Origin: Malacoraja senta
Lineage: Eukaryota
Length of the DNA: 64,000 bases
Assembly (NCBI GenBank): GCA_038087875.1
Contig: CM075991.1
Location: 5,890,001-5,954,000 of the forward strand
Direction of reading: 5' to 3'
This document shows, in pieces, positions 3,916 through 52,264 of this stretch. The translations under genes were made by a program, and so were the position numbers. Numbering within the stretch: the stretch's first letter is position 1; each line of letters begins with the position of its first letter. The notes beneath the pieces are model-generated. The model was given only the letters and a program-made list of their open reading frames with translations. It did no database searches and was not told where the DNA came from.

Positions 3916-4125
3916 CCTCAAAACTCATTGGCCGACTTCCGGTTGCGACATGCTCTGCTAGCAGTCGCAAACTTTTTAGCTCCGCTGAAAAAATCGCGAT
4001 TTTTCGCGTTAAAATCGGGTCTGGAGGTCGGGACCGTTTTTAAAAACTTACCGGAGCTTCATGTCGCGGTGCTGATGACGTCATCAGTAAGCGCCGCGAT
4101 TATAACGGAGGGAAAGTCATTTTAA

Positions 4126-5121
4126 ATGAAAAGTACATCTCCAGGTCAGAGCCCACAGAGGAAAATCTCAAAACATCTGCTGAAGACTCTGGAACAGCAA
4201 GAAACTTCAGAACTGACCTCTGGAGATGTCTCTGGAATGGCTACTCGATCTGCAAAAGAGAAAACCGAAATGGAGGACTTAAGAAACTCGGTAAGAGATA
4301 TCAAAAATGATATGGAAGCTGGGAACAGTAAATTGATAGCCGGTAATGATAAAATACTTGAGGGTATTGAGGCTCTCCAAAAAAGAATTGAAGGTGTGGA
4401 AAAAGGACTATCGATAAAAATTGAAAAGGTGGCAGAAGAGACCACAAAGATGTTTGAGGCTGTGCACGAAACTGTGGCTGCAAATGCATCTGCAGTGAAT
4501 GATTTGGAAGCTGTTGTGGAAGTGATGGCTGGAGAGATGCAGACTATGAAGTCAGAAATAGATAGTCTCAAGAACCAAGTCACAAAGGTTTCGAATAAAT
4601 GTGTTGACCTAGAAGCTCGCTCAAGACGCCAAAATATAAGAATACGTGGTGTAAAAGAGGGAGCTGAGGGGGACAATGTTTGTGAGTTCGCTGCCAACCT
4701 AATTAAACACGTACTGAAGCTACCAGAAGTACCTGTAATTGAAGTAGCACATCGACTCCCCAGATTTAAATCAAGATCTCAAGGAGAACGTGCCTACCCA
4801 CGACAGATCATAATTAAACTTCGGGATATCTCAACAATGGAAGCGCTGATGAAAAAAATCAACCACGGAGAGAAGATGATGTACAGAGGTGATACTATTA
4901 AACTCCTACGGGACTACCCTTATGAGATTGAGCAAAAGAGAAGAAAGTTCTCACAGACCAGAGAAGTTCTTTATGGTGTTAAGGGAGTTTTGTGTGGAGT
5001 GTTTTATCCGGCTAGAATGCGTATCACCTTTGAGGGAGTGTCAAAAACATTCACTAATTCGGATGAATCTCTCAAATACGCTCAAGAAATCGCGACTAAG
5101 GCTGCATCAACTGGAGATTGA
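4126..5121 (+). CDS. L1 ORF1p (coiled coil + RRM + CTD), 331 aa
   Basis: Heptad coiled coil followed by DLEARSRRQNIRIRGVKEG, IEVAHR, PRQIIIKL, FYPARMRI: L1 ORF1 (transposase_22-like) motifs. Confidence 0.95.
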   Translation: MKSTSPGQSPQRKISKHLLKTLEQQETSELTSGDVSGMATRSAKEKTEMEDLRNSVRDIKNDMEAGNSKLIAGNDKILEGIEALQKRIEGVEKGLSIKIEKVAEETTKMFEAVHETVAANASAVNDLEAVVEVMAGEMQTMKSEIDSLKNQVTKVSNKCVDLEARSRRQNIRIRGVKEGAEGDNVCEFAANLIKHVLKLPEVPVIEVAHRLPRFKSRSQGERAYPRQIIIKLRDISTMEALMKKINHGEKMMYRGDTIKLLRDYPYEIEQKRRKFSQTREVLYGVKGVLCGVFYPARMRITFEGVSKTFTNSDESLKYAQEIATKAASTGD

Positions 5122-6026
5122 AAACCAAGACGACATGAACAAACGAACTTGCTTATTCTTCCAACAAGAGTATCACAAGGAAAGTGAATTAACTGAACAC
5201 TGATTTTTTATTTTTTATTTGACTTCAAGCAACAGATTCTTAGTGAGACGTGGCTAGACATTATTATCTTCGCTGGAACATTGTGCTATGTAATTCAAGG
5301 ACACTACGTGCTCAAACGAGGAAAACCTGATAACACGGGACGAACTGCTGGGCTGAGAGTGAAAAACATCACATGGCTTATATTGTTTATAAAAAACTGA
5401 AAAAACAGAGAACTAATAATAATTAACAATTAACAATACTAATATAGAAATAGCAATTGAAATAGATAAAAAATGTGCAGTCTGCTCTGTTTAGCAGATA
5501 ACAGCAAGTGCTATGCAGCTCGAGAGTGGAGGGAGGGGGAGACCGGGTACCTGGCATAACTCCAGGAGCCAGACTCCCGTTAACCCTTCCAGCGAACAGC
5601 TCATTTTTAACAATATTAAAATCAATTTAAAATAGTTAAGAGATAATATACACTCGAGGTTGATATGAAAAATATATACGGCTTATATAGTTTTACAAAA
5701 TGCTGAGAATTAATCATAATTAATAATTAACAATACTAATATAGAAATAATATTTGAAACTGATAAAACTGTGGTGCCTGCGTCATAACGCAGACAGCAG
5801 TTATCACCTATGTTCGCAGCTCGTGGAGAGGAGAGGAGATCAGGCACCTGGCACAATTCCAGGAACCTGACTCCGGTTAATCCACTCAGTAAACCGCTCA
5901 CTTTAACAATACTAAATTCATTTTAAAATAGTTAAGAGATAAAGAGTGAGTAGGATATGGAATCGAATACATTTGACATATATATAAATTGTAACTGGGT
6001 GAAATAGAACTGAATTGGAAACGGTA

Positions 6027-6347
6027 ATGACCCCAGAGATTTTGGGTAATAAATACAGCGGGGCTAACTTTATACCAACTACGCCGGAAGCGTTATGGAT
6101 GTCGTACCCCACAGACGAGTGGGCCACTCACTACGGTGTTGAAATTTTAGACACCGTAAATTTATTTGATTTATATATATTTTTTTTAATCACAATATGT
6201 CACATCTGTGTGTTTTTTCTTCAAGGACAATCGCGCAGGAGAACTACCAAGGAAGTCTATAATAGAAATACTCCCAAAATAACCAGAGTCCGGAGGTATG
6301 AACGCACCACAATAATTAAGGTCATTAAAACTGGTAAAAATGCATGA
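6027..6347 (+). CDS. Putative L1 spacer-encoded small membrane protein (106 aa) overlapping the ORF2 start
   Basis: Open frame ATG6027-TGA6347 with hydrophobic LFDLYIFFLITICHICVFFL followed by SRRR; positional homologues in the other two L1s (see findings). Confidence 0.5.
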   Translation: MTPEILGNKYSGANFIPTTPEALWMSYPTDEWATHYGVEILDTVNLFDLYIFFLITICHICVFFLQGQSRRRTTKEVYNRNTPKITRVRRYERTTIIKVIKTGKNA

Positions 6348-9300
6348 CGACAATCAAAAGAAAATAGGAGGAATCACATTATGTAGTTGGAATATAAGGG
6401 GGATTAATGAACCTATTAAAAGGGGCAAGATACTAGCTCAGTTGAAATCATACAACACGGACATTGCGTTTCTACAGGAAACACATCTTAAACAGCAAGA
6501 TCAGACAAGACTGAGGGCGAACTGGATAGGCCAAACATTTCACTCTTCATTTACCTCCAAATCTAGAGGTACTGCAATTATTATTCGTAAAGGAATTCCA
6601 TTTAAATCAAAGAACACTATTTTAGATAAGGAAGGGAGATATCTTATAGTAGCAGGGGAGATCAATAATATGCCAATTACGCTGGTAAACATATATGCGC
6701 CCAACTTTGATAACCCTCAATTTTTTAATAAAATTCTGAATATAATTGCAGAATCTAATTATCAAAATGTTATAATCGGAGGAGATTTTAATTGTGTTTT
6801 AGATCCTTATTTAGATAAATCGATGCAAAAACAAAAAGGTCAGACGAAATCTAAAACCAGTGAACTCTTACACACATATATGGAAAACACAAATATAACA
6901 GATGTATGGAGGATTGCAAACCCGACGGGAAGGGATTACTCGTTTTATTCAATGGTGCATGAAACATATTCACGGATAGACTATTTTCTTGTGGATACAA
7001 AATTAATTTCGCAATCTCTGAATCCTAAATATCATATTAATGCGATCTCAGATCATTCTCCGTTAACTTTTGTTCTAAAACTAGAAGGAATGTCTATGAA
7101 TAAACCGTTCTGGAGGTTTAACTCACAAATTTTAAAAGACCCTCAAGGGAGTATCTATCTAAAAAAACAGATGGATCTATTTTTTGAGTTAAATGATACA
7201 CCAGAGATATCCCCCACGTTATTATGGGAATCCTTCAAAGCATTTATAAGAGGAGTCATTATTTCATTTCAAGCTTATCAAAATAAAAAGAATAAGAATG
7301 AACAAAGACACTTAGAAGATCAAATAAAACAGTTAGATATAGATAATGCTAAAGACCCAACTATGGATAAACATAATAAAATACTACTACTGAAATTTCA
7401 GTTAAATAAATTACTGTCAGAGAAAGTTATAACATTATTTCAAATCACAAAACAAGAACACTTCGAATTCGGGGACAAACCCCACAAACTTCTAGCACGA
7501 CAACTTAAAAAACGGGAAAAAGAGAATGCAATATTAAAGATTAAATCAGATAGAGGGGAAGTATTAACACTACCCAAGGATATTAATAAAAGATTTGCTC
7601 AATTTTACCAGAATCTATACACATCTAAAACGTCAATAGACAATAATAAAATCTCAGAATTTTTAGATAATTGTAATCTACCACAATTAGAACGCAGGGA
7701 ACAAGAGGAACTGGGAGCACAAATTACTTCTAAGGAGATAGAAGACACAATAAAAACACTAAAAAATGGAAAAACACCAGGACCAGACGGATTCAGTAAT
7801 GAATTTTATAAATCTTTTTATGATATAGTTACTCCACGATTACAAAAAATGTATACATATGCTTATAAAGAGCAAAACCTACCTGAAACACTAGCGGAAT
7901 CAACGATCATATTAATACTTAAAAAAGATAAAAATATAGAAGAACCAGGATCATATAGAGCTATTGCTTTGTTAAATACGGATCAGAAAATAATAGCAAA
8001 AACATTAGCCAATAGATTAAGCAAGTATGTTAGTAGACTAATACATGAGGATCAAACAGGATTTATACCTAAGAGACACTCATTTAATAATTTGAGACGT
8101 TTGCTTAACATAATGCATTCACATAAATCTTATGACCAAGAGTTAGCTATCATCTCACTGGACGCAGAAAAAGCGTTTGATCAAGTAGAATGGGACTATA
8201 TGATCAAAGTATTGCAAAAATTCCAATTGGGAGAAAACTTTATTGCATGGATAAAACTACTATATAACAAACCTACGGCTAGAATACTAACTAATAATAT
8301 ATTATCTTCAAAATTCGAATTATCTAGGGGCAACAGACAAGGATGTTCACTATCACCGCTGTTATTTGCTTTGGTAATTGAACCCCTTGCTGAAAAAATA
8401 AGAACACACTCGAATATTCACGGTTATAACACAAAATATTCAAACAACAAACTATCCCTATATGCTGATGATGTACTACTGTACATCACAAAACCACAAA
8501 TTAGTATACCAAATATATTAAACTTAATTGAGGACTTTGGATCCTTTTCAGGATATAGAATAAATTGGAACAAAAGTGAAATTATGTCGATTAAACCAAA
8601 AGACTCAACACATCTCAGGAAATTCCCTTTTAAAATAGCTATGGAAAAATTCAAATATTTAGGAATTGAGATTACTAGAAATTACCATGATATGTTTAAA
8701 GCTAATTATAATCCCCTACTTAAGAAATTAAATAATCTGATTAAATTTTGGAAAACACTTCCGATGTCCTTAATAGGTAGGATAAATGCTATAAAAATGA
8801 TTTTCTTACCACAAATCCTTTACCTATTTCAATCATTACCTATATATCTCCCAAAAAAGTTTTTCAAAAAACTGGACTCAGACATTACAAATTTTATATG
8901 GGATTACAAATCCCACAGAATACAAAGAACACACCTTAACAAACGAAAAGAGTTGGGGGGTCTAGCGCTCCCTAACTTTATGTATTATAACTGGGCAGTA
9001 AATATTAAAAATATGATTCACCTGCTGGACAATTCTGCCCAGCAGGTGGACTGGATTATAATGGAAAAAGGGGATTGCTCCCCGAATAATATAGGAGCGA
9101 TTATTCTCTCTCCAATAAATTTGAATAATAAAAATTATAATAAAAATCCAATTATATATAGCACTATTAGAACATGGAAGCAAATAAAACAGAATCTAAA
9201 ATTAAGAAACCTATCTCTCTTAATACCAATAGTCAATAACCCATCGTTTAAACCTTCAATCATAGATAAAGCATTTATACAATGGGAAAGAATGGGAATT

Positions 9301-10131
9301 AAAACGCTCGAAGATCTGTATGAATTAGAAAAATTACTATCATTCCAACAACTACAACTGAAATATAATTTGAAAAATAATCAATATTTTAAATATCTAC
9401 AAATCTGTGACTATTTGAAAACACACACAAAAGATTATTATAATATGCCTTCCGACTTACTAGATGAAGCAATGAAGACAAAGGCGGAATCAGTTAATTT
9501 AATATCATACTTATATAATATCATCTTAAATATAGAAATACCCACAACAGATGGAATTAGAAGAGATTGGGAACAAGATCTAGGTATAAAAATTTCAAAA
9601 GAGAGTTGGGATAATCATTTATTACAGGTGCATAAATGCTCGATCAACGTACGACATACGCTTATCCAATTTAAAACATTACATAGATTATATTATTCAA
9701 AAACCAAACTAAATAAAATCTTTCCTAACGTCTCACCAATCTGTGATAAATGTATATGTCAAGAAGCTACCATAGCACATTCTTTTGTTTTTTGTACAAA
9801 AATCCAAAAATTCTGGTTTGAAATATTTGATATTTTTTCAAAATTAATCAAAATAAAACTGGTACCAAAACCAGAATGGATTATTTTTGGAATATCGGAA
9901 GGTATTCCTGAATTAAACGTGTATCAGAAGAATTTACTCAATTATGGGCTAATAATGGGAAAAAAGCTTATACTTAAATTCTGGAAAAATGCGCCCACAC
10001 CAACAATAAAAATGTGGACATCAAATATGTTGGAAACATTACATCTGGAAGAGATGAGATTCCTCCTAGTAGGCAAAGTAGATCAATTTCAAAAGACGTG
10101 GTCTACGTTTTTGGACCTATTACAAGCATGA
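6340..10131 (+). CDS. L1 ORF2p (APE endonuclease + RT + CCHC), 1263 aa, uninterrupted
   Basis: SWNIRG, LQETH, GGDFN, SRIDY, SDH (EN); PGPDG, LDAEKAFD, RQGCSLSP, YADD, FKYLG (RT); CDKC-x8-H-x4-C. Confidence 0.98.
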   Translation: MHDDNQKKIGGITLCSWNIRGINEPIKRGKILAQLKSYNTDIAFLQETHLKQQDQTRLRANWIGQTFHSSFTSKSRGTAIIIRKGIPFKSKNTILDKEGRYLIVAGEINNMPITLVNIYAPNFDNPQFFNKILNIIAESNYQNVIIGGDFNCVLDPYLDKSMQKQKGQTKSKTSELLHTYMENTNITDVWRIANPTGRDYSFYSMVHETYSRIDYFLVDTKLISQSLNPKYHINAISDHSPLTFVLKLEGMSMNKPFWRFNSQILKDPQGSIYLKKQMDLFFELNDTPEISPTLLWESFKAFIRGVIISFQAYQNKKNKNEQRHLEDQIKQLDIDNAKDPTMDKHNKILLLKFQLNKLLSEKVITLFQITKQEHFEFGDKPHKLLARQLKKREKENAILKIKSDRGEVLTLPKDINKRFAQFYQNLYTSKTSIDNNKISEFLDNCNLPQLERREQEELGAQITSKEIEDTIKTLKNGKTPGPDGFSNEFYKSFYDIVTPRLQKMYTYAYKEQNLPETLAESTIILILKKDKNIEEPGSYRAIALLNTDQKIIAKTLANRLSKYVSRLIHEDQTGFIPKRHSFNNLRRLLNIMHSHKSYDQELAIISLDAEKAFDQVEWDYMIKVLQKFQLGENFIAWIKLLYNKPTARILTNNILSSKFELSRGNRQGCSLSPLLFALVIEPLAEKIRTHSNIHGYNTKYSNNKLSLYADDVLLYITKPQISIPNILNLIEDFGSFSGYRINWNKSEIMSIKPKDSTHLRKFPFKIAMEKFKYLGIEITRNYHDMFKANYNPLLKKLNNLIKFWKTLPMSLIGRINAIKMIFLPQILYLFQSLPIYLPKKFFKKLDSDITNFIWDYKSHRIQRTHLNKRKELGGLALPNFMYYNWAVNIKNMIHLLDNSAQQVDWIIMEKGDCSPNNIGAIILSPINLNNKNYNKNPIIYSTIRTWKQIKQNLKLRNLSLLIPIVNNPSFKPSIIDKAFIQWERMGIKTLEDLYELEKLLSFQQLQLKYNLKNNQYFKYLQICDYLKTHTKDYYNMPSDLLDEAMKTKAESVNLISYLYNIILNIEIPTTDGIRRDWEQDLGIKISKESWDNHLLQVHKCSINVRHTLIQFKTLHRLYYSKTKLNKIFPNVSPICDKCICQEATIAHSFVFCTKIQKFWFEIFDIFSKLIKIKLVPKPEWIIFGISEGIPELNVYQKNLLNYGLIMGKKLILKFWKNAPTPTIKMWTSNMLETLHLEEMRFLLVGKVDQFQKTWSTFLDLLQA

Positions 10132-10529
10132 GGTGCAATAGTAATTTAGAAAAACAAATAAATAAATAAAAGGTATCTGGACCTGGTAATGGGAGGTAAA
10201 ATAAAAACAGACTTGGTTGGTAGTTCCTTCTCTATGAAGTATGGTATAAGAGTTACAATAGAGCGATTGTTCCTTCTTTCTTTCTCTTTTTTTTTCTAGG
10301 GTCTATTTTCTAACTTTACTTCCTTCTCTAACTTCTTTTCTAAGGGGCTTTCTTTTCCCAACACTCTTTTGCACTTCACAACCTTTGCGCACTTTCTTCA
10401 CTTTTCTTACTTCTTTCTTTTTCTTTCTTAAAGTTTAAAAAAGTGAAGCGGTACAAAAAATGTATTAATATATACGTGTTGTACATTACTGTAATCTACC
10501 GTACTTCTAAAAATAAAAAAAAAATAAAA

Positions 10530-10565
<36 letters not shown>

Positions 10566-11494
10566 ATTGGCCGGAGGTTCATTCTGCAGCAACACAATGA
10601 TCCTGAACATGCCGCTGAAGCAAGAAATGAGTTTTACAAAGGAAAAAACGGTCAATTCTTGAGTAGTCAAGTCAATCACCCAATCTGAAACCAACTGAGC
10701 ATGCCTTCACAGATTTCAAACAGTCATTACATGCAAAGGATATGCAACATAATACAAAACATTACTACTTTCATTTACATGACATTGCTGTGTCCCAAAT
10801 ATTACAGTGCCCTGCAATAGGGGGACTATGTATAATCATTGCTGTAATCTCTACATGGTGAAACCAAATTGTATAAAAATGTCCTTTATTAAAATTATGG
10901 AGTACAGAGGCAAATAAATAAATGATGTCCCAAACATTATGGAGGGCACTGTTCCAGACCCGAACTTAAATCTGAATCAATATGAAACCACATCTCCTCA
11001 ATTAAGAGTGCTCATATTGAAGGCTGATGTGCCACGCGCAATCTTCACCACTGTGTCTCCTTGCATTGCAACTTTAAGGGAATTATGTACATATATTAAT
11101 TGTTCTCGCTGCACTTTCTTTTACAACACTCTGTGTGTCCCTATCATTCACAATGCAGGTCTTGCCATTGGTTATCTTGTAAAATAGCGACGCGACTCAT
11201 TTGCAGGAGTTAAATTCCATCTGCCTTTCCTTGGCCTACTTCCCAGGTCTTTCGGTTCATTTTCTAATTTCAGATAATTCGTCTTACGATATGAACCGAT
11301 TGTTTCACACACGTGATCACAATTTTACAACAGTAAATGATCACAACTTTGTTCCTTGCCACATACTGTGTCGAAATTGGATACCTTAAACCACATAAGG
11401 TAAGCAGCAATGCTCTTCAAAATTATCTTTATCGTGTTCCTTAATCCCTCACCATATGTTTTCCTTGACACGCTGCCTCACATTCCGTATCATT

Positions 11495-12559: not shown

Positions 12560-14520
12560 ATGGAATATCCAGCAATTTACTACATAGCCGGCACTTTCTA
12601 CCCTGTACTTGTGGCGGTTGGTATTCCTGGTAAGATACTGGGACGAGTAGGTTTAGTTTTGTACAGAAAAACTGCGCGGAAAGAGGCCCTTCGATCAACC
12701 GAGTCCGCGCCAACCAGCAATCCCCGCACACTGACGGCACACGCTAGGGACAATTTACAATTGTACCAAGCCAATCAGCCTACAAACCTGTGCATCTTTG
12801 GAGTGTGGGCGGATACCGGAGATCCAGGAGAAAAACCCAAGAAGATCACGGGGAGAATGTACAAACTCCGTGCAGGATCAAACCCGGGTGGTTGGCGCTG
12901 TCAGGCAGCACATTTAACGCTGCGCACCGTGCCGTACTGCGTGCAGTTCTCCTTCCTTTCTGTATCTGCTGCTCTGAAGAATAGTCGCTTTGATACCCAG
13001 CCCAGATGCTGCCTCAGCTGACGAGTGTCTTCGGAAGGTTCAGGCTTCAGCGTCTGTTTTATTTCTGGCATTTTGTTCTTATTAATGTGTGGTTCTTTTG
13101 TCAATCGGGTCAGTTAATTTAGAGCTAGTGTTTACATTTTTTCAGCATGTAACCGTATTCAAATTGTTTCTGGCGCATATTCTTCAAGCTCCGGGTCTCA
13201 TTAATACAGACTTTTCCACCAAGATTCAGCGAATGAGAAATGTATACATGTCTGTCAACATGCCTGTTGAATTATCACAACTAGCTGAAACACCTTCCGG
13301 GTTTTCGTTCTCTGATTCATTTGCCAGTTTTGATTTTATGACTGCGTTTCGACTTGCTACGTCTGATATGTCGGAGGAAGCAGTTCTCCCTGATTCTAAT
13401 GCTCTCTGATACAAGCTCATTTCGATTGACGCAACGACTCGAAATGACTGAGGTAATCAGTGCGTCGTAGACTTTAGGAGGCCGACTGTAAATTGCTGCA
13501 AATTACCGACACATCTGCCTCTTCGATCAGCACCGCTCTAAGTATTTCTCCGAACGGAAATTTAGTAAACTGGATCAGGTTTTTGCTCATTGAAACTAAC
13601 GTTCTATTTTGTTTCTTGCAGTTAATTTAACGGCGATTGTGATCCTCTCCCGGGGAAAATGTGGTCTCTCCAAATGCATCACCCGTTACCTAGTGGGAAT
13701 GGCAACAGCGGATCTAATGATAGTTGTCATTGTTGCTGCAATTGAAAAAGTTAATAACATACACGTTTACGCTCGTTCCTTGTTCATTACACCGGTTTGC
13801 GCTCTGACACTAATACTAAGTGTAATAACAATCGACTGTTCCGTTTGGTTCACCGTCAGTTTCACTTGCGATCGTTTTATGGCGATCTGTTGTCAAAAGC
13901 TACGTAAGCGCTACAGCACCGAGAGAGCAGCGTGTGTGATTATGGTGACTGTGGCTGTCGTCAGCTGCGCCCGATCGTTTCCCTTTTACTTTGCCGTGGA
14001 GCCTGCTGTCATAATTGACAATGTGCCTTGGCGTTGCGTCTTCTCAGAGGAGTACGCCACTTTGTCGGAATGGAAAGGTTATGAGTTACTTGACAGCATC
14101 TTAGCACCGTTGTTACCTATCGGTTTAATCCTGTTGTTCAATGGGTTAACTTGCAGACATATCATAGCGGCCAATAGAGTTCGCAGACGACTTCGGAACA
14201 GCCATGAGAACCAGAAAGATACAGAGGTGGAGAACCGGAGAAAATCGATGATTTTGCTCTTCGCTGTATCAGGCAATTTCATATTATTTTGGATACCCTA
14301 TGTGGTTCATTCTCTGACATGGCAAGCACGTAATTTCTTTTACATCGATAGATATTTGAGCAACCCGGTATTTATCCTGCAGCAGTTTGGATATATGTTT
14401 CAGGTTCTCAGTGTGTGCACAAACACGTGTATCTATACACTGACACAGAGGAAATTCAGGGAGGAGCTGAAGAGTGGAGTGAAATATCTACTCACATTGA
14501 ATGGCCGATTATGTAGTTGA
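12560..14520 (+). CDS. GPR139-like: GPR139-like orphan class A GPCR, copy 1; exon 1 12560-12629, exon 2 13622-14520; about 322 aa
   Basis: Phase-1 intron CCTG|GTAAG..TTGCAG|TTAAT joins MEYPAIYYIAGTFYPVLVAVGIP to VNLTAIVILSR (TM1 GxxxN). ADL in TM2, TCDRFMAIC (DRY-like), TM5 LP, TM6 FWIP, TM7 NTCIY..KFREEL. Short N-terminus and intron within TM1 as in the GPR139/GPR142 family; AATAAA at 14556-14561. Paralogue-level call only. Confidence 0.88.
12648..12934 (-). mobile_element. tRNA-derived V-SINE (HE1-like) in the GPCR intron
   Basis: Minus strand reads CGGCACGGTGCGCAG..CCCGGGTTTGATCC (A/B boxes), V-domain GGAGTTTGTACATTCTCCCCGTG..TCCAAAGATG and a CR1-like tail; present in all three introns. 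Confidence 0.75.
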
Positions 14521-31871: not shown

Positions 31872-34800
31872 CTTAAATATTTTATTTTATTAGAAGTAAG
31901 TACAGTCATATGGCACCAAAGTGCCTAATATATATTTGCATAATACATTTTATGTACATCTTCTTATTTTTTTAAATTATAATAAAGAAGAACAAGAAAA
32001 AGAAATTAGATAATAAAGAATAGAAAAACGTGAGATATATAGTGTCTGAAAAAGAATAAAATGAGAATGCAAGAAGAAAGTTGAAGAAAAGAGAATAGGA
32101 AAAAGAGAGTAAAAAATACAAATAAAAAAGAAATAAGGAGATCATTATTTATAATCTTGACCATCCCTCACCCAGTCCTGAAACAGTTCGTTTCTACAAT
32201 TATGTTGCACCATATGATTCCAAAAAGACGACAAATGGAGACCAACTCGTTAAGAATTGGTCTGATTTTTCTATTAGGAGGAATCGCATTTCTTCAAGAT
32301 GTGCGGTGTCCAACATGCTTGCGATCCACATTTTAAGCATTGGTATTGGTGTATATTTCCAAAATTTAAGTATTCGTTATTTTGCTATTATTAAACCATA
32401 ATTAAAAAATAAATGTTGAGATAAGTTCAATTTATTCCCATCTTCCATTACTCCAAATATAATCATTTCAGTATTAGGTTCCATTCTTATTGTGAATAAT
32501 TTTGTAAATATATCAAAAAATCACTCCAAAATCTATAAAGTTTTATGCAGGAAACAAAAGAGTATGTTATAGTTGCGTTTTGAGATAGACATTTATCACA
32601 AATGGGGGATATATTTGGATGGAATTTGTTCAAACTTGTTTTTGAATAATATAATCTATGTAAAATGTTTAATTGAATTAGATTATGTCTTGCATTAATC
32701 GAACATTTGTGTATATATATCAAATACTTATCCCATGTAACCTTCGTAATTTTTATCATTAATTCCCGTTCCCACTCTTCTCTAAGTACCTTTGTCGATG
32801 GTAAATCTATATTTAAAATACTATTATATAAATATGATATTAATTTTTGTGAGTCAGCTTTAATATTCATTGCTTCTTCCAATAAGTCAGAAGTTACTTT
32901 TTGATATCCTTGTATGTATTTCTTCATGAAATCGCAAATCTGAAGATATTTAAAATATTGGTTATTTTTCAATTAAAATTTTAATTGTAATTGTTGGAAT
33001 GATAATAGATTTCCCATTTCATACATATCCCCGGTCCTTTTAATTCCTAAACTTTCCCATTGGTTATATATTTTATCAATAAGAGATGGTTTAAATAAAG
33101 TGTTTTTCGCTATAGGCGTTAACAATTATAAATTTCTTAATTTTAAGGATAATTTTATGTGTTTCCAAATTCTTATTGTATCGTGTATAATTGGGTTCTT
33201 CTTATATATTGTGTTGTTCAGTTTTTTCGGAGAGAAGAGGATCGTTCCTATATTACAAGGAAAACAATCCTCTTTCGCCATTGTTATCCATTCTGTCTGT
33301 TGGGTAGAACTGTCCAACCAATAAATTATATTCTTAATATGCGCTGCCCAATAATAATACAAAAAATTCGGGAGTGAGTATCCCCCGACATCTTTTGGTT
33401 TACATAAATGTTTGTTTTAAATTCTATGTGATCTATAATCCCAAATAAAATTGGTAATATTAGTCAAATTTTTTAAAGAAGTATTTTGGTATATATAATG
33501 GTATAGACTGAAATAGGTATAATAATTGTGGTAGAAAGATCATTTTTATAGCATTTATTCTACCTATTAATGATAAAGAAAGTGTTTTCCAAAATTTAAT
33601 CAACATATTGAGTTTATTAGTAAAGGTATAAAATTAGCGTTGAATATTGCTTTATATTTTCTCGTAATTTGAATACCCAAATATTTTTTTTTTTCTGTTG
33701 CAATTTTAAAGGGGAACTTCAGTAAAATTCCTCTATTAAATTTAATAAATTTGGTATTCTCGTTTGTGACTTTGTAACATATAAAATTATATCATCTGCA
33801 TATAATGAAATTTTATTATTTGAGTCCCTAGTGTTGTAGCCATGAATATTCGGATGAATTCTTATACTTTCAGCCAAAGGCTCTATCATAAGGGCAAATA
33901 GCAGGGGTGATAACGCACATCCCTGCGTACTGCCCATTGATAATTGAAAATTTTAAGATAACATATTATTAGTTAATATTCTTGCCATCGGGTTATCATA
34001 TAATAGTTTTAACCGTGTAATAAAATTCTCTCCCATATTAATTTTTTGCAGTACTTTATATAAGTACTGCCACTCTACCTGATCAAATGCTGTCTCTGCC
34101 ACCAGAGAAATAATTGATATATCTGCTTCCTCCCTTTTATGCGAGTACATTATGTTAAACAGGCGTCTCAAATTATTAAATGAGTATCTTTTCTGTATTA
34201 ACCCCGTTTGATCAGGATTTATCAGATTACTAATATATTTGCCTAATCTTCTTGCTAAAGTCTTCTCTAAAATTTTCTGGTCTGTATTTAAAAGTGATAT
34301 AGCTCTATATGAGCCCGGATCGTCTAAATCGTTATCTTTTTTGGAATAAGCGTAATAGTTGATTCTACTAATGTTTCAGGTAGTTTATTTTCTTTAAAAG
34401 CATGAGTATATAAATGAAATAAATAAGGAGTCGTTATCTCATGAATTTTTTTATAAAATTCATTACTAAAACCACCTGGTCCCAATCTTTTACCATTTTT
34501 CAGCGATTTTATTGTTTCACCTATTTATTCAATTGCAATTTGAGCTCCAAGTTCCTCTTGTTCCAAAAGGACAAGTTTTGGAAGATTACAGTTATGAAAA
34601 AAAAATTGTTTTACTATCTTCTATTTTAGATTTAGATGCATATACATTTTTGATAAAATTGAGCAAATCTATTGATAATATCTTTAGGTAGTATTAATAA
34701 TTCACCTTTCTATGATTTAATTTTAGTTATAGTATTTTCCTTTTCTTGTTTTTTCAATTGACGAGCTAAAAGTTTATGTGGTTTGTCACCAAACTCAAAA

Positions 34801-36910
34801 TGTTCCTGTTGTGTAATTTGGAATAGTCTTATTACTCTTGCTGATAAAATTCGATTAAGTTTAAATTTCAGTAACATTATCTTATTATGTTTATCTGTAG
34901 TGGAATCTTTGGCATTATCTAACTCTAACTGTCTAATTTCTTGTTCTAACAGCATTTGTTCTGTCTTATTCTTTATATTTTGAAAAATTTGATATGAAAT
35001 TATAATTCCTCTAATAAATGCCTTTAAAGTTTCCCATAATAAAGAAGGCGAAGGACCTGGTGTATCATTTGTCGCCAAAAAAAAATAAATTGTTGTTTTA
35101 AGAATTGATAACCTTGTAAGTCATTTAAAATATGTGTATTAAACCTCCAAAAAAAGATTTTACCCGGCATTCCCTCAAATTTTACTGAAAATGTCAACGG
35201 AGAGTGATCAGAAATACCACTAATGTGGTATATTGGATTAATTGTATATGGCATTCATTTCATATCCACTAAAAAGTAATCAATTCTTGAATAAGTTTAT
35301 GTACCAAAGAGTAAAACGAGTATTCCCTTCCTACTGGATTAGCAGATCTTCATACATCTGTTATATTAGTATTTTTTATATATGTATTTAGAAGTTCACT
35401 AGTCTTAGATTTTAAATTACTCCTCCTTTGTTTTACTGATTTGTCTAAGTATGGATCTAACACACAGTTGAAGTCACCCCTATTATCACATTTTGGTAAT
35501 TAAACTCTAATATGATATCTATAATTTTACCAAAAAAATTGGGGGTTGTCAAAATTCGGAGCGTAAATATTGATCATAGTTAGTGGGGTTGCATAAATTT
35601 CTCCCGAATCTATAATATACCTTCCCTCTTTATCTGATATAGTATTCTTTAATTTGAAAGGTATACCTTTTCGAATATGAATAGCCGTACCTCTAGATGT
35701 GGAAGTAAATGACGAATAGTATGTTTGACCTATCCACTTCGCCTTTAATCTCATTTGTGTTTGTTGTTTCATGTGGGTTTCCTGTAAAAACATTATGTCG
35801 CTTTTCAAAGATTTTAGTTGAGCAAAAATGTTACCCCTCTTTATTGGTTCATTGGCACCCGTTATATTCCAACTACAGAATGTGATTCCTCCATTCTTTA
35901 TTTGTCTATCGTCTTGCATTATATATCAAAATAGTATTCCTGAATCATATGGTGCAAGCAAATACCTCAGAGTTATGGGTGTTGGGTGGTCATCCCAAGT
36001 TTTTAGATTTATATTACATCTCCTTCTTGAAAAGTACCTTAATAAAAGAGAGAAAAAATGTGATATAAAGTTGAATACAAACAAAATAAGCAAATACAAG
36101 TCTTTCTAGTGATTTAAAAAAAATAGTGATGTTAAGGTATCTAACAAAAGATACCTTAAAGGCAAGTAGCCACCTAAGGTGGCGAAACATTTATGGACTT
36201 CCGTTGATGTTGTTTTACATTGAGCTCCAATCCCTTAATAAAACCTCATAAAAAGCTACAGACCGTTTCATATCTTATTTATTCTTATTTAATTTTATCA
36301 AACTGGCACCAGTGAAAACAGAAAACATTCAGACAAAAATATTTTAAAGAATATATATATATATAAATATAAGTATATATGCCTTTCCAATTTATCTAAC
36401 CTTAATCTAGTCTAAACTTTACCATAAATGTCCACCCAAGATTCTTACGTAATTCTTACCCATCCTTTAACTACCATACAAGCAGGTACCAAGGGGTTAA
36501 ACAAAACCTAATTCCTGGATCTTTTCCAGGTTTATGCTGCGCCTAACTCCTTCCCACACCAGAAAAGTAGGTTAGTAATGTTATAAACATTTTGCTTGGT
36601 TACTATTTATAAGCATATATAATTTATAAGTATATATCATTAATATTAATTCATTTCCCTTTTTGAATATATAAAATCATAATTATATACACTCCCATTA
36701 TCTCCTTCCCCGTCTCATGGTTTATTCATGATTTGTTCATTTTACTACATACATTCACGAGTAATTAGTATTATTAAATTTGTTAAAATAATTGGTTAAT
36801 TATAATTAGAATATAATGGTTAGATATTTTCTTAAATCAACAGTTTTTATATTCCAATTAGTATTATCTCGTTCCATGTCCATTATACATTCCCTCATTA
36901 CTTCTGTATC
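31872..36910 (-). mobile_element. Degenerate 5'-truncated LINE-1 (L1-C): ORF2 from 35919 plus spacer, no ORF1
   Basis: Frameshifted ORF2 pieces (SWNITG, LQETH, SDH, QGCALSP, YADD, CDKC); A-rich 3' end abutting the GPCR copy 2 3' flank; 5' end approximate and no TSD found. Confidence 0.92.
35906..36249 (-). pseudogene. Disrupted spacer micro-ORF of L1-C
   Basis: MRFY*GIGAQCKTTSTEVHKCFATLGGYLPLRYLLLDTLTSLFFLNH*KDLY...SRRRC...RYLLA..IL(frameshift)..NARR*; aligns codon for codon with the L1-B spacer ORF. Confidence 0.55.
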
Positions 36911-37405: not shown

Positions 37406-37795
37406 TTTGATAGTTAATAATAATAATACATTTTATTTGTACAGCGCATTTCTTTTTTTTATTTTTTTTTATTTTATTAGAAGTTAATACAATACAAAAC
37501 AATACAGTGGCACCTAATTTGGGTGCCAACTATGTCATAACGTAATGCATTCTATGTACAACCTCTAGTTTTATGTTTTTGAAAAGGAGGTAAAAAATAA
37601 AAAATAAAAAATAAAAAAATAGAGAAAAGAAAGTGGAAAAATAAATAGTAGAAAATAGAAAAACGTGAAGTGTGTATATAAGAAAAGAAAAAATAGAAAG
37701 TAGAAATAGTAGAAAAAGACCCTTAAAAAAGAAAATTTCAAATCTTTGTTTGGAGATGTAAATCTATCCACGACCTGACCTGAAATCAGTAATCT

Positions 37796-40700
37796 TTACG
37801 GTACTGCTGCATCACATGATTCCAAAAAGTCGATGAAAGGGGACCAACTCCTTAAGAATTGGTCATATTTATCTATTAGGCCGAGTCTCATTTCTTCAAG
37901 GTGTGCTATGTCCGTCATATTCCTAATCAACATTTTAATAGTTGGTATAGCTGTATTTTTCCAAAATTTATGTATCAATTTCTTTCCAATTATTAACCCA
38001 TAATTAAAGAATACTTTTTGGTCTTTGTTTAAATTGATATCTTCTAATATTATTCCAAATATAATCCATTCCATATTAGGTTCTATTCTTGACTTGAAGA
38101 GCTTTGTAAATATATCAAATATATCGCTCCAATTCAACTTTGTACATCCTACAAATGAATGTGTTATATTGGCATTTTGAAACAAACATTTATCGCATCT
38201 GGGAGAGACATTTGGGTAAAATTCATTCAACCTCGTTTTTGAATAATATATTCTATGTAATAATTTAAATTGAATTAAATTATGTCTTGCATTAATGGAA
38301 CAATTATGTGTATTCATCAGATACTTTTCCCATCTATCTTTCGGGATCTTTAACATTAGTTCATGTTCCCAATCTTCTCTTAGTGCCTCTGTTGAGGGTA
38401 ATTCTCTATTTAATATACTATTATAAAAATATGACATTAGTTTTTCTGAATCAGCCTTAATATTCATTGCTTCTTCTAAAGGGTCTAAAAATATAGTTTG
38501 AAATCTATATATATATTTCTTCATAAAGTCACATATCTGTATATATTTAAAATATTGATTATCATTCAGTTTAAATTTTAATTTTAATTGTTGAAATGAT
38601 AACAATTTGCCCAGTTCATACATATCTCCTACTTTCCTAATCCCCAATCTATCCCATTGTTTATATGTTTTGTCGATAAGAGATGGTTTGAATGCAGGAT
38701 TATTCAGAATTGGGGTTAATACTGATAGATTATTTAATTTCAAGGATAATTTTATTTGTTTCCAAATTCTTATTGTATTGTGAATAATTGGGTTCTTCTT
38801 ATATATTATACTATTCAATTTTATTGGTGAGAACAAGATCGTTCCTATATCATACGGGAAACACTCCTCTTTTTCCATTCTTATCCACTCCGACGGGTGA
38901 GTTGAACTATCCAACCAGTACATTATGTTCTTAATATGCACTGCCCAGTAGTAATACGTAAAGTTAGGTAGTGATAAACCCCCAGCTTCTTTAGGTTTAC
39001 ACAAATGCTTTCGTTCAATTCTGTGTGCTCTATAATCCCATATAAAATTAGTGATATTAGAATCTAGTTTTTTGAAAAAATATTTCGGAATATATATTGG
39101 GATCGCTTGAAACAAATATATTAATTGTGGTAAGAAAGTCATTTTTATAGCGTTAATTCTACCTATCAATGAGAGTGGGAGCGTTTTCCAAAATTTAATC
39201 ATAACATTCAATTTATTTAATAGTGGCATAAAATTGGCGCTAAATAATGATTTGTGTCTTCTCGTAATTTGAATACCTAAATACTTGAATTTTTCTGTTG
39301 CAATTTTGAAAGGGAATTTTAATAAGTGTCTCGCATCCTATGGTTTTAAAGACATGATTTCGCTTTTATTCCAATTTATTCTATATCCTGAAAAAGAACC
39401 AAATTCCTCAATTAGTGTTAATAAGGTGGGAATACTCGTTTGTGTATTAGTAATATATAAAAGAATATGATCAGCATATAATGAAATTTTATTCTTTGAG
39501 TCCTTGGTGTTATAACCATGAATATTCGGATGATTTCTAATCCTTTCAGCCAGCGGTTCTATCATAAGGGCAAATAGCAATGGTGATAAGGCACAACCCT
39601 GCCTATTACCCCTTGATAAATAAAAATTTGAAGATAACATATTGTTAGTTAATATTCTTGCCGTAGGTTTATCATAAAGTAGTTTAACCCATCTAATAAA
39701 ATGTTCTCCCGTATTAAATTTTTCGAGTACCTTATATAAATACTGCCATTCTACCTGATCAAATGCCTTCTCTGCATCCAGCGTAACGACTGAAATATCT
39801 TCAATGTCCTCTTTGTGAGAGTTCATTATATTGAAAAGCCTTCTCAAGTTATTAAATGATTGTCTTTTGGGTATAAATCCCGTTTGATCCGGGTTTACCA
39901 ATTTATTAATATAATTATTCAGTCTTCTTGCTAGAATCTTTGCTAAAATTTTCTGATCCGTATTTAAAAGTGATATAGCTCTGTAAGAACCCGGTTCATC
40001 TAAATCTTTATCTTTTTTTGGTACAAGCGTTATTGTTGATTCTGCTAAAGTTTCTGGTAGTTTATTTTCGGTATAAGCCTGCGTGTATAAGTTGAGTAAT
40101 CTTGGTACAAGTGACTCTTGAAAGCGTTTATAAAATTCATTACTAATACCATCTGGTCCTGGGGTCTTCCCAATTTTCAATTAGTTTATTATTTGTTTTA
40201 TTTCTTCACTAGTAATCCGTGCTCCTAATTCCTCTTGTTCTAAACGATCCAATTTAGGGAGGTTGCAAATATCTAAACAATTTGTAATTTTACTATCATC
40301 TGTATTTATTTTAGTTGTGTATAAATTATGATAAAATTGGGCAAACATTTTATTAATATCCTTTGGTAATGTTAGAAGCTCACCCTTATCAGATTTAATT
40401 TTAGTGATAGTATTTGCCTTTTCTTGTTGCTTCAGTTGCCTCGCTAATAATTTATGTGGCTTATCCCCAAATTCGAAGTGTGCCTGTTTTGTAATTTGGA
40501 ATAGTCTTATTACTCTACCCGATAATATTCTATTGAGTTTATATTTCAATAAGGTTATCTTATTATGTTTATCTATAGTTGGGTCACTTGCATTGTCCAG
40601 TTCTAGTAATTTTATTTCCTGTTCTACCCTCTGAAGTTCACTTTTATTTTCTTTATTTTGATAACTTTGATAAGAGATTATAACACTGCGAATGTATGCC

Positions 40701-41598
40701 TTAAAGGTTTCCCATAATAGCGATACAGAAATACCCGGCGTATCATTTGTCTCGAAAAAAAATGGTGTTTCTTCTTTTATATACTCATAACCCTGCGGGT
40801 TATTTAATATTTGTGCTTTGAATTTCCAAAAAGATTTTATACCCGGCATTCCCTCGATTTTAAGTATAAAAGTCAGTGGTGAATGATCGGAAATAATACT
40901 ATTATGATATGATGGTTTAATTGTATACGGGATTAATTTTGTATCCACTAAGAAATAGTCAATTCGTGAATAAGTTTTATGAGGCGACGAGTAAAACGAA
41001 TATTCCCTTCCAATTGAGTTTGCTATTCTCCAAACGTCAGTTATGTTATTATTTTTTATATAAGTATTTAAAAATTCACAGGTCTTAGTTTTAACTAGAC
41101 GCTTCCCTACCTTTATTGATTTATCTAAGTATGGATCTATAACACAATTAAAATCTCCCCCATTATAATATTTTGATAATTATGCTCTGCAATTATATCT
41201 AGTATTTTCTTAAAAAATTGGGGATTATCAAAATTAGGCGCATAAATATTTATCATAGTTAATGGTGTATTGTAAATTTCTCCCGTGACTATAACGTATC
41301 TTCCCTCTTTATCAGATATGGACTTCTTTAATTTAAAAGGTATACCTTTCCGAATTATAATGACCGTGCCTCTTGCTTTAGAAGTGAATGAGGAGTAGTA
41401 GGTTTGACCTATCCAGTTTGCCCTTAATCTGATCTGCGTTTGTTGTTTCAAATGCGTTTCTTGTAGGAAAGCAATATCAATGTTTAATGATTTTAATTGT
41501 GCCAGAATTCTACCCCTCTTAATTGGCTCATTCGCACCTCTAATGTTCCAACTACAAAAAGTGAGACCTCCGGTGTTTATTCGACTATTATCTTGCAT
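37796..41598 (-). pseudogene. L1-B ORF2, with frameshifts, a stop and YADD>YADH
   Basis: Fragments 41598-41137, 40948-40181, 40180-39338 and 39229-37796 are colinear with L1-A ORF2. Confidence 0.93.
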
Positions 41599-41932
41599 TG
41601 GCTATTATTACCAGAATGTATAATTCATGTGATGCAGCCAAGTACCTCGAAATCCCGAGTCCAGGGTTGTCCTTCATAATTTCTGCACTAGTTTTACATC
41701 TCCTGACACTATTAAACATAATTAAGGGAAAAAGAAAAACATAAAATGAAGTGTTCATAAAGATTGTTAAATCATACAACGCATAATAGTGAATAAACAA
41801 AAAAAGTGAATGTAAGTTATCAAAAAGGCGATATCTTACAAAAAAGCCACCTACGGTGGCTAAGATTTGTTTTAAATTGACCTCCGTCGATGGAATTATG
41901 CACTGGGCTTTGTCCCCCTAGTAAAATATCAT
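41588..41932 (-). CDS. Putative L1-B spacer micro-ORF (114 codons, in-frame TAG at codon 5)
   Basis: MIFY*GDKAQCIIPSTEVNLKQILATVGGFFVRYRLFDNLHSLFLFIHYYALYDLTIFMNTSFYVFLFPLIMFNSVRRC...RYLAA..ILVIIANAR*; overlaps the ORF2 ATG at 41598. Confidence 0.5.
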
Positions 41933-42532
41933 CCAACATTAGTTGGTTTCCTCCACTTAACCAAAATTATCATGTCAGGTCGATTAATAGCCAAAAAATT
42001 TAAAATAAAATAGAAGAAAAGCTAGAAGATTTACAATAAAATAAAATAGAATTATTATCGTCATTAATCAGACTTTTCATTAGCCTGTATGTTAGTTGAT
42101 TCGTAATTAGTATTTAGAATATCTGTCTAACCTCCCCCATCCTTCCTACTATATAGTTAGTCATGTTAGTATAATACATTAAACCTTTAGGGTTAATTTA
42201 GTTTATTGCATATATATAATTAATTAGTTAGTTAGTTATATGCTGTATATCTAAATAATAGATCATATAGTACTAAGACAAAGGCAGACCAACAAGACTG
42301 TTATAAATTCAAAAAAGAACAGTCAATAAAACTCAGGGCTGAAAAACTTGGCGCAGAGCCTGCGACCTTGAACTTTCCATCTGTTGAGCCTCAGTTTTTC
42401 AATTCAAGATAAAGTTGGGACTCTGTTATTAAAAAACACATTCTGGCCAAATAAGTATGTCTGAAAACCGTCTAAACAAAGTAAAAAACAAGTTCAGCCG
42501 GCGTAGTGTCTCGTTATTCTTTTCCTTGAATT

Positions 42533-43621
42533 TTATTTAAAATCTCCTGGGCAAGCTGAATCCGGATCCGTGAATGAACGTTGCTTAGCATTGTACGTAA
42601 TTAACATTTTAGCAGGGTAGATAACTCCGTAACGAACTTCAGAATGTCCTTGTACGATACTGCTTGCACTTTTAAACTGGCGTATTTTTGCCAGTATTTC
42701 CCGAGGGTAGTCTCTGTAAAATCTAACAATATTATCAGCGAATGTAAGATTTTCTCCATAAGATATCTTGTTTAATAAATTTTCCAAAGTCGAAATGTCT
42801 AAGAACTTTACAATAATTTGACGTGGTGGAGCATTCGCTCCTCTTTGGAAGCGACCAACACGATGAGCCACATCTATCTTTGGTTTTTCTGGCAGTTTGA
42901 AAACATCTTTACGTAAATTAGTGATAAAATCACCCATTTCAGAGCCGTGCTCTGCCCCCTCTTTAACTCCTATTATTCTCAAATTCTGCCTCCTTGACCT
43001 GGCTTCCAAATCTTGACATTTCTCATTCAGTTTATTCGTCAGCTCCCAATTCGCGTCGTGTTCTTTTTTCAAACCTGTTATTTCCTGGCCCATCTGCTGC
43101 ATTTCACCCTCCATCTCTTCCATCAATGTTTCAGTCTTTGTTAATTGCTTCAGCAGGGAGTCATGTTTATTGTTATAATCTCTCTGCATTCTTTCCAATT
43201 CCTTAGCAGTCCTCGACTCCAAATCTTTGAACTGCTGGTTCAGGGATACGTAAAGTTCCTTTAATTCTCCACAGCTAGTGTCAATTTTCTCAGAGAGATT
43301 ATCCTCCATTGAAGAAAAATTGTTCTGCATTCTGGAATTCATTTTAGCAAATTGCTTCTGAAGATCTTTAGTAATGTCTTTAGTAATATTAACTCTTACC
43401 GATGCTTCCCAGCTTTTCATTTCTTTCTCCCTTTCTTTTAACTCTTTTGTTTCAGCACTTGCAGCCATTTCGACTGTTGGTTGTTGAGATTCTAGCTCCT
43501 CTTCCAAACTTTCAAATGTAGATTCAGGAGTGGTTTCAAGCTCATCCAGAGCTTTTTGGAGCTGGAGCTGGAGACTGATTGTAGTCTTCTTGGGTCCTCT
43601 CTGACCTCTTCCCTTTTTCAT
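42533..43621 (-). CDS. L1-B ORF1p, 362 aa (extreme C-terminus possibly frameshifted)
   Basis: Long coiled coil, DLEARSRRQNLRIIGVKEG, IDVAHR, PRQIIVKF, YPAKMLI. Confidence 0.92.
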   Translation of the reverse strand: MKKGRGQRGPKKTTISLQLQLQKALDELETTPESTFESLEEELESQQPTVEMAASAETKELKEREKEMKSWEASVRVNITKDITKDLQKQFAKMNSRMQNNFSSMEDNLSEKIDTSCGELKELYVSLNQQFKDLESRTAKELERMQRDYNNKHDSLLKQLTKTETLMEEMEGEMQQMGQEITGLKKEHDANWELTNKLNEKCQDLEARSRRQNLRIIGVKEGAEHGSEMGDFITNLRKDVFKLPEKPKIDVAHRVGRFQRGANAPPRQIIVKFLDISTLENLLNKISYGENLTFADNIVRFYRDYPREILAKIRQFKSASSIVQGHSEVRYGVIYPAKMLITYNAKQRSFTDPDSACPGDFK

Positions 43622-43818
43622 CCGATTTCTACCGGTAAAATCGTTTTAAATCCCGATTCCACCGGCACCGTCTGATGACATCAGTACCCACGAGGTTCAG
43701 CAATCCCGGTAAGAGTTTTTAAATCGATCCTGGCGTAGGAACCGAGTTTATACACGATTTGTCGGGAGCAGAGCTCTGTGCAGCTGTCTTACTGCTTCAT
43801 AGCAGCCACCGGAAGTCC

Positions 43819-51900: not shown

Positions 51901-52264
51901 CTCCGCCACGCATAGCATGTGGCATGCGGTGCGGTGCTCGTACCACAGGTAAGACATTTGCATCATTGACGATGTTGCCTCTGATGGGTAGCTTCCTAAA
52001 CTTATCGTCAAAATGTTCCTTGCACTGGGAAGTATCTGCTGGGTGGTGCCCTCGGCAGGAGAGATTTGATGGACAGCAGGCCCAAAAGTTACCAGTCCAA
52101 GGTCCTGGCATGCGTTAATGCCATGCAGAGTTGCAACTTTCCCACGGAAAGTTGCAACTCTGTTTCCCACAGAGTTGCAACTTTCCCACAGCCTGTGAAG
52201 TTGTGACGCTAGGTGGTATTTCAGCTCAGCTTTTCCAATTGGGTGCACCTCCCCCCCATCCCCC
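48940..52264 (-). mobile_element. Degenerate Gypsy element: pol remnant plus 3' LTR (48940-49146)
   Basis: Same RT/RNase H fragments as 1-2111; integrase PLPWSTPATDIFEWHGKQYLVLVDSYSGWFEI; LTR is the reverse complement of 19124-19333. Confidence 0.9.

Follow-up and report, generated by a model that had tools for sequence, protein, structure and literature searches.

An open reading frame that is led by predicted RNA hairpins and ends at ORF2 is the feature behind a stop/start overlap that a first-pass annotation had reported at the ORF2 AUG of three L1 families in Malacoraja senta. What appears to be preserved is an open frame with its stop near the AUG, rather than a fixed overlap in the −1 frame. 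The window, that is, the whole stretch of DNA analysed, comprises 64,000 nucleotides of contig CM075991.1 (assembly GCA_038087875.1, positions 5,890,001–5,954,000, forward strand).

Three L1-type elements

The window carries three L1-type elements, L1-A on the plus strand and L1-B and L1-C on the minus strand (Table 1). Pfam models detected an APE endonuclease followed by a reverse transcriptase in ORF2 of L1-A, the domain order of the L1 clade. An upstream ORF1, a poly(A) tail and a target-site duplication are present in L1-A and L1-B. The two ORF1 proteins share 47% identical amino acids across 194 residues; that of L1-A had no significant match to an L1 Pfam family. The first-pass annotation placed the end of ORF1 0.9–1.2 kb upstream of ORF2. 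This holds for L1-A (1218 nt) and L1-B (934 nt) and has no counterpart in L1-C, whose ORF1 is absent from the window.

The ORF2 N-termini of the window elements are 74–76% identical to that of L1-A. Database searches yielded 293 ORF2 relatives at E ≤ 1e-20, the best of them 56–57% identical. The named relatives are teleost L1-type proteins with an identity of 49% or less. Other copies of the elements were viewed through contigs of public sequencing runs, which cover copies of L1-A and C-like copies and not L1-B.

The segment 1–17017 is duplicated at 50154–60535 with 99.6% identity. L1-A is present in one copy only, and its insertion is thus recent. The duplicated segment also carries a rhodopsin-type 7TM ORF (13699–14520 and 57213–58034), with a partial third at 30825–31451. 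The spacer of L1-A has an internal duplication of its own (5360–5646 and 5666–5942, 74% identical). Each duplicate (5520–5600, 5818–5895) folds into a long GC-rich hairpin of −31 kcal/mol, with paired changes between the copies. L1-A (from 3935) and L1-B (from 43818) both start with ACTTCCGG, which we take to be an ETS-like motif; its core recurs reversed within hairpin H1 of the spacer.

Table 1. Coordinates of the L1-type elements, their ORFs, spacer frames and predicted hairpins in the window.
Feature	Position	Strand	Details
L1-A, full-length, ORFs intact	3935..10558	+	15-nt target-site duplication 3920-3934 / 10559-10573; empty site 54073-54087
L1-A ORF1	4126..5121	+	331 codons counted from first AUG
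L1-A inter-ORF spacer	5122..6339	+	1218 nt, 14 AUGs
L1-A spacer frame (−1 to ORF2)	6039..6347	+	102 codons + stop; in-frame ACG 6081, AUG 6099; upstream stop 6036-6038 in other copies
L1-A predicted hairpins	6081..6158	+	H1 6081-6093, H2 6108-6123, H3 6132-6158; local z −2.4
L1-A ORF2	6340..10131	+	1263 aa, APE endonuclease + reverse transcriptase; PF03372 + PF00078 on 6340-10128
L1-B, full-length	37453..43818	-	14-nt target-site duplication; ORF1 43621-42533; ORF2 from 41598, frameshift-broken
L1-B spacer frame (−1 to ORF2)	41588..41917	-	109 codons + stop; in-frame ACG 41887, first AUG 41758
L1-B predicted hairpins	41812..41888	-	H1 41888-41879, H2 41861-41845, H3 41839-41812; local z −4.8
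L1-C ORF2, several frameshifts	32215..35919	-	more decayed than the other two elements
L1-C homologous spacer frame (frame 0 to ORF2)	35926..36234	-	no AUG; ACG 36204; internal stop 36108
L1-C predicted hairpins	36132..36204	-	H2 36183-36169, H3 36159-36132; local z −4.3

The stop/start overlap at the ORF2 AUG

The letters quoted by the first-pass annotation are in place: A-ATG-CA-TGA at 6339–6347, A-ATG-CAAGA-TAA at 41599–41588 and A-ATG-CAAGACGA-TAG at 35920–35906. A spacer ORF crossing the ORF2 AUG in the −1 frame, claimed for every element, is found in two of the three, L1-A and L1-B. Counted from the first in-frame AUG, it comprises 82 codons in L1-A, where the TGA (6345–6347) overlaps codons 2–3 of ORF2, and 56 codons in L1-B. 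A 106-codon form of the L1-A ORF, starting at 6027, needs a G at 6036 that is private to this copy or to the assembly; it was rejected because position 6036 is T, creating a stop, in all read depth of three runs.

In L1-C, the −1 frame is closed by a stop at −28 to −26, downstream of which there is no AUG. The homologue of the L1-B frame is ORF2's own frame 0, one base shorter near −12, with its stop at −9 to −7. This spacing is not private damage, since related copies share it and no indel reaches 20% of depth in the C-like contigs. Among the contigs listed that span the AUG to −49 or beyond, four are gap-free, one at a depth of 1984. Two listed pieces have two gaps each, and a third, starting at −9, has one.

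The stops start at +5 (L1-A), +8 (L1-B) and −9 (L1-C) relative to the ORF2 AUG and occupy different homologous positions. Within ORF2, 9 of 26 in-frame AUG codons (start codon excluded) have a −1 stop within 4 codons. Synonymous recoding of the N-termini with ORF2 codon usage gave a stop as near in 58% (L1-A), 65% (L1-B) and 83% (L1-C) of trials. A near −1 stop after the AUG is therefore weak evidence. The overlap described in the annotation exists in part, and chance would account for most of it.

Conservation of the overlap across families, as proposed in the annotation, breaks down in L1-C, in two relatives known from single contigs and in zebrafish spacers. Both single-contig relatives have the C-type spacing. 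The first (depth 6.7, read by eye) has a frame-0 stop at −12. The second (depth 3, read by eye, possibly an error) has a −1 stop at −4, and its frame 0 is open over the last ten codons and runs into ORF2. For zebrafish, 17 spacer ends in the supplement of PMC5381506 were read by eye, which gives the sequence above the AUG only, and the lists were assumed to end directly before the AUG. Four were left out, two with ends uncertain by one base and two with doubtful starts. Of the 13 remaining spacers of this supplement, 4 have the −1 frame closed by a stop no more than 10 nt above the AUG; two have an AUG-overlapping stop in the other frame, and two a stop immediately before the AUG. Together with the spacing of L1-C, this makes a fixed −1 overlap no general rule.

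N-termini of the types MxD and M(Q/H) are likewise not general, with 19 and 11 cases in 115 ORF2 relatives. In the distant fish-like L1 contig L001, a −1 stop lies three codons past the likely ORF2 AUG (1879–1890). In each of the three window elements, folding predicts that the ORF2 start (ATGC) pairs with bases around −37 (6304–6344, 41635–41594 and 35955–35915), a pairing that may explain the shared AATGCA.

A long open frame above ORF2

What the first-pass annotation called a micro-ORF is a stop-free frame of 102 codons in L1-A and 109 codons in L1-B. The last 300 nt of the spacer have no stop in the −1 frame in either element; the other frames have 5 and 11 stops in L1-A and 12 and 8 in L1-B, and each antisense frame at least 3. 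Shuffling in 50-nt blocks left any frame stop-free in 0.4% (L1-A) and 0.5% (L1-B) of trials. In the remainder of the spacers and in the 3′ UTRs, all 24 overlapping control windows had at least two stops in each of their frames. The frame is also open below the hairpins: between −210 and −10, none of the 12 (L1-A) and 11 (L1-B) stops lies in the spacer frame. In simulations of neutral drift to 35–50% difference, an open frame survived in 0.5–1.7% of runs. The long frame of L1-C has two stops (shuffle P 0.11 for any frame) and ends with TGA at 35928–35926, six bases ahead of the ORF2 AUG. C-type families have the one-base difference near −12 and the stop just ahead of the AUG.

Eight upstream anchors, selected after the alignment was viewed, were compared for codon phase. 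Five of them, the H1 core, the 5′ arm of H2, the 3′ arm of H3 and two purine motifs, are in one phase across L1-A, L1-B and L1-C, despite length differences of 3, 3 and 30 between L1-A and L1-B. The other three are out of phase in L1-A and resemble local shifts that cancel. By global score, the L1-A spacer significantly resembles those of L1-B and L1-C (z 4.6 and 5.8); the local score is not significant, being reached by 54 and 19 of 300 shuffles.

Predicted RNA hairpins

Two hairpins, H2 and H3, are predicted to be strong in each element, 180–265 nt above the ORF2 AUG. The small hairpin H1 is predicted in L1-A, weak in L1-B and not predicted in L1-C. The signal is local. Folding of the whole region is ordinary for L1-A (z −0.05) and mildly unusual for L1-B and L1-C (z −1.8 and −2.2).

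MAFFT left the L1-A hairpins unaligned with those of L1-B and L1-C, so the register of L1-A H3 was set by hand. In this register, two of the nine H3 pairs change on both sides between L1-A and the other two elements, a further pair changes by wobble, and another is broken in L1-B. A fourth family, similar to L1-C, has the residue changes T>I and G>D within H2, which imply that one predicted pair went from C-G to T-A. Among the variants listed for C-like copies between −300 and −200, none of 11 variant sites falls into the 34 stem positions (P 0.008). This count omits three rows that a single low-depth contig contributed, one of them in H2. With the H2 row, 1 of 12 listed variants is in a stem (P 0.04); between −330 and −7 it is 1 of 31 (P 0.14). 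The read depth of the C-like contigs peaks over the hairpin block, a weak hint that the block is the best-kept part.

Rfam gave no match at gathering score in the window, with only weak unrelated matches by E-value. No IRES family of the dicistrovirus or another type matched the spacers at E ≤ 5 with the Rfam models, which work without pseudoknot modelling; an IRES of the dicistrovirus type has three pseudoknots, with initiation directly behind PKI. A hairpin model built on the three elements matched its training sites only and not L001. In the supplement of PMC5381506, reading by eye shows a GGGA...CCCAC motif shared by several zebrafish and frog clade-1 spacers, followed by G-runs and then by a U-rich tract above ORF2.

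Database relatives of the frame

A profile search of 1.84 billion proteins gave two matches. One is real, a cluster of four predicted ORFs from sequencing-run assemblies that represents the fourth, C-like family; the other (P0123, E 9e-4) was dropped as a repeat-rich match. The four ORFs are open for 90–92 codons from a TEV motif, and all end exactly at the stop of L1-C. They are known as predicted protein sequences only and were recovered because they are open. One of them, P0126, aligns gap-free with L1-C over 92 codons with 57 of 92 residues identical and has N at the internal stop of L1-C.

A word-index search with the L1-A peptide gave no match and with the alignment P0122 only. The ESM Atlas had no usable match for the spacer-frame peptide, and Pfam no family. 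A scan for related loci found none in viral contigs and one distant element, L001, in metagenome contigs. Three of the 115 ORF2 relatives (P0013, P0052 and P0066) have a hydrophobic in-frame extension of 25–45 residues above the likely start, which looks as if a U-rich spacer frame continues into ORF2. In zebrafish L1-6 (supplement of PMC5381506, by eye), the −1 frame is open for about 63 codons into the AUG.

Start of the frame

The in-frame AUGs are unshared, located at −241 in L1-A, at −160 in L1-B and nowhere in L1-C. An in-frame ACG is present in H1 of all three elements (Table 1), 18–24 nt above H2. Above the TEV motif, the fourth family reads in a frame other than that of L1-B and L1-C, starting from an AUG that lies five codons further up. 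This places the start of the shared frame at about the same point, near the ACG. From this arrangement, the shared frame perhaps starts at the conserved ACG. The triplet may also be kept for pairing in H1 rather than as a start. It reads ATG in one third of the C-like depth (two runs of one study), a variant that may be due to CpG decay.

A ribosome scanning from the ORF1 stop would pass ten AUGs in L1-A and twelve in L1-B before the ACG. Such scanning is hence unlikely, and some internal entry is inferred. Directly above the long frame and in the same frame is an AUG ORF of 3–4 codons (6027–6038 in other L1-A copies only, 41932–41918, 36249–36235); in L1-B and L1-C it supplies one arm of an additional predicted hairpin, in which two pairs have changed on both sides. 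Readthrough of the stop after this short ORF (−313 to −334) was considered and rejected, with a second stop there in 58–75% of the C-like depth.

Constraint on the peptide

In the spacer frame, L1-B and L1-C differ at 31, 33 and 40% of the first, second and third codon positions; for the first 130 codons of ORF2, the values are 12, 10 and 45%. The pN/pS of this pair is 0.85 (bootstrap range 0.63–1.12) in the spacer frame, 0.17 in ORF2, and 1.03 and 1.14 in the shifted frames. Along the frame it rises from 0.58 (first 42 codons) to 1.32 (final part). All three element pairs have a spacer-frame pN/pS below 1, a value that decayed copies drive toward 1. The constraint on the spacer-frame peptide appears weak.

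A proposed relay to ORF2 and alternative explanations

How ORF2 comes to be translated when the spacer measures several hundred bases is left open in the available text of PMC5381506 and PMC3894237. The ancestral vertebrate L1 probably had a long spacer. The first-pass annotation suggested that the ORF above ORF2 relays ribosomes to it. The long open frame, its weak peptide constraint, its end near the AUG and its 5′ hairpins are in line with this idea; the fixed −1 overlap is the part that fell away. The favoured but tentative reading, with chances slightly below even, is that the spacer frame is translated and relays ribosomes to ORF2 by reinitiation. Ribosomes would enter internally at or near the hairpins, not by scanning from ORF1, and start at the in-frame ACG within H1. 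They would translate the frame of about 90–100 codons, terminate no more than 11 nt from the ORF2 AUG and start again at that AUG. The complete two-step route for long-spacer fish-type L1, with hairpin recruitment, ACG start, a peptide-indifferent relay of 90–100 codons and reinitiation, is unlikely as a whole. If true, L1 elements of the fish-type clade would be functionally tricistronic, and entry-site and reinitiation models, so far treated as rivals, would be joined. Weak points for the relay are the long frame of L1-C, with two stops and no AUG, and the single-contig relative of depth 3, whose C-type frame is open into ORF2 over its last ten codons. The confinement of the TURBS core UGGGA to L1-C and the net inhibition by the long megabat spacer also speak against it.

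Function as RNA only, in which the hairpin block and the U-rich tract either place ribosomes directly on the ORF2 AUG as an internal entry site or act as an export, packaging or stability signal, and in which the frame is a relic or by-product, is rather unlikely. The base-level conservation, with a codon-position pattern different from that of ORF2, and the avoidance of the H2 and H3 stems by the listed C-like variants would suit such a role. So would the stem that may pair the −37 bases with the AUG in all three elements and thereby explain the shared AATGCA, and programs predicted entry sites adjoining ORF2 in 31–32 of 36 long spacers (PMC5381506, available text). It leaves unexplained why the frame is stop-free in L1-A, L1-B and the fourth family, also downstream of the hairpins, and why lengths between anchors change by multiples of three. 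The strongest structure is also 180–290 nt away from the AUG, with 4–8 AUGs intervening. Improbable is a small membrane protein (ORF1.5) as a product that matters. L1-A, L1-B and L1-C all encode a hydrophobic stretch of 19 residues (Kyte-Doolittle 1.8–2.3) followed by S-x-R-R, but other frames of the U-rich tract are similarly hydrophobic in L1-B and L1-C, and the fourth family is polar or charged at this stretch (best window 0.94). The pN/pS below 1 in three pairs, lowest in the first 42 codons and compared with values above 1 in the shifted frames, points to the peptide; its bootstrap range spans 1, local frameshifts are tolerated in L1-A and the peptide belongs to no Pfam family.

An ORF that overlaps an AUG usually represses that AUG under scanning. 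The frame could accordingly be a brake, whose ribosomes overrun or stop short of the ORF2 AUG and keep ORF2 low. A brake requires a separate route to ORF2, and the L1-C frame ends ahead of the AUG and would not block it by overlap, which makes this reading very improbable even though the frame ends past the AUG in L1-A and L1-B, the usual layout of an inhibitory upstream ORF. Low ORF2p levels (PMC4091050, available text) and an inhibitory long spacer of megabat L1 (PMC4072516, available text) are in its favour. The remaining explanation, quite improbable, is a shorter RNA for ORF2, transcribed from a promoter inside the element or spliced to an acceptor past the pyrimidine tract, with the conserved motifs as promoter or splice signals. 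In all three elements, a pyrimidine tract leads up to an AG near −115, and GAG|GTA is present near −48, yet several AUGs lie between the putative acceptor and the ORF2 AUG. H1 contains CGGA(A/G)G, presumably an ETS-like motif, and the same core, reversed, opens both full-length elements; the paired stem changes point instead to RNA structure. In the L1-B spacer (42236–41943, minus strand), ACTAAY occurs 8 times where 1.0 would be expected (0 of 300 shuffles), an excess absent in L1-A and L1-C; we assume it to be a motif for a branch point or a STAR protein. No splice-like joint was seen in the public-run contigs, for which the kind of run is unspecified; one joint inside ORF2, in a single contig, is probably another family.

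The relay and its alternatives can be separated at this locus. It offers two stems with paired changes, a candidate ACG and a frame that is breakable without touching the stems. Two natural stop layouts are available, after the AUG in L1-A and L1-B and before it in L1-C. L1-A is intact and differs little from its other copies, so its spacer is usable in a reporter unchanged.

Comparison with known systems

No description of a conserved spacer frame with hairpins in fish L1 was found in the literature covered, which includes few subscription journals. In the available text of PMC5203782, ORF0 and reverse ORFs are the only extra frames named. The L1 elements of zebrafish, frog and lizard (PMC5381506) share with the window elements the long T-rich fish spacer and structure proposed as the driver of ORF2. 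The entry sites are software-predicted and at most 10 nt from the AUG, and the accessible part of this source reports no structure common to the spacers and describes no spacer ORF.

In SART1, the ORF1 stop lies within UAAUG, with no spacer and an RNA structure downstream (Kojima 2005, as cited in the available text of PMC3894237 and PMC5972666). The likeness is a stop adjoining the ORF2 start in a non-LTR element with RNA structure involved. Coupling of this type is absent from the window elements, where ORF1 ends 934–1218 nt upstream. UAAUG occurs in L1-C only, in another frame, at the end of a 9-codon ORF, and is polymorphic (missing in 23–54% of depth).

The TURBS of caliciviruses and influenza B also provide reinitiation after a long ORF, with the stop within a few codons of the restart (PMC5972666, available text). 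The window elements have such near stops (+5, +8 and −9), a weak likeness by itself. The UGGGA core is not shared by the last 120 nt of the three: L1-A has none, L1-B has CGGGA at −59 and L1-C UGGGA at −78. P0126 has W>R at the UGGGA site, and the core is apparently changed in the fourth family. A further difference is that the strongest hairpins of the window elements are 180–290 nt upstream. By analogy, the proposed mechanism resembles termination-reinitiation after a long ORF, with neither the UAAUG of SART1 nor the UGGGA of TURBS as a common element.

Human L1 shares the bicistronic RNA. Its ORF2 depends on a completed upstream ORF, and ORF1 itself is not required (PMC4091050; Alisch 2006, as cited in PMC4091050, PMC5972666 and PMC4072516, available text). 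In human L1, the spacer has 63 nt and ORF1 is the upstream ORF. In L1-A and L1-B, in contrast, ORF1 is 934–1218 nt away, and the spacer holds 14–20 AUGs, a long frame of its own and a conserved block of predicted hairpins. Megabat L1 likewise has a long spacer; the available text of PMC4072516 describes neither a single conserved long frame to the AUG nor a hairpin block. This spacer is inhibitory overall in human cells. Removal of all its AUGs lowered retrotransposition about 3.3-fold and shuffling of the spacer 8.8-fold, which was read as reinitiation from small spacer ORFs (PMC4072516). A relay in the window elements would fit both the rule reported for human L1, that ORF2 requires a completed upstream ORF of whatever kind, and the result of the megabat spacer AUGs.
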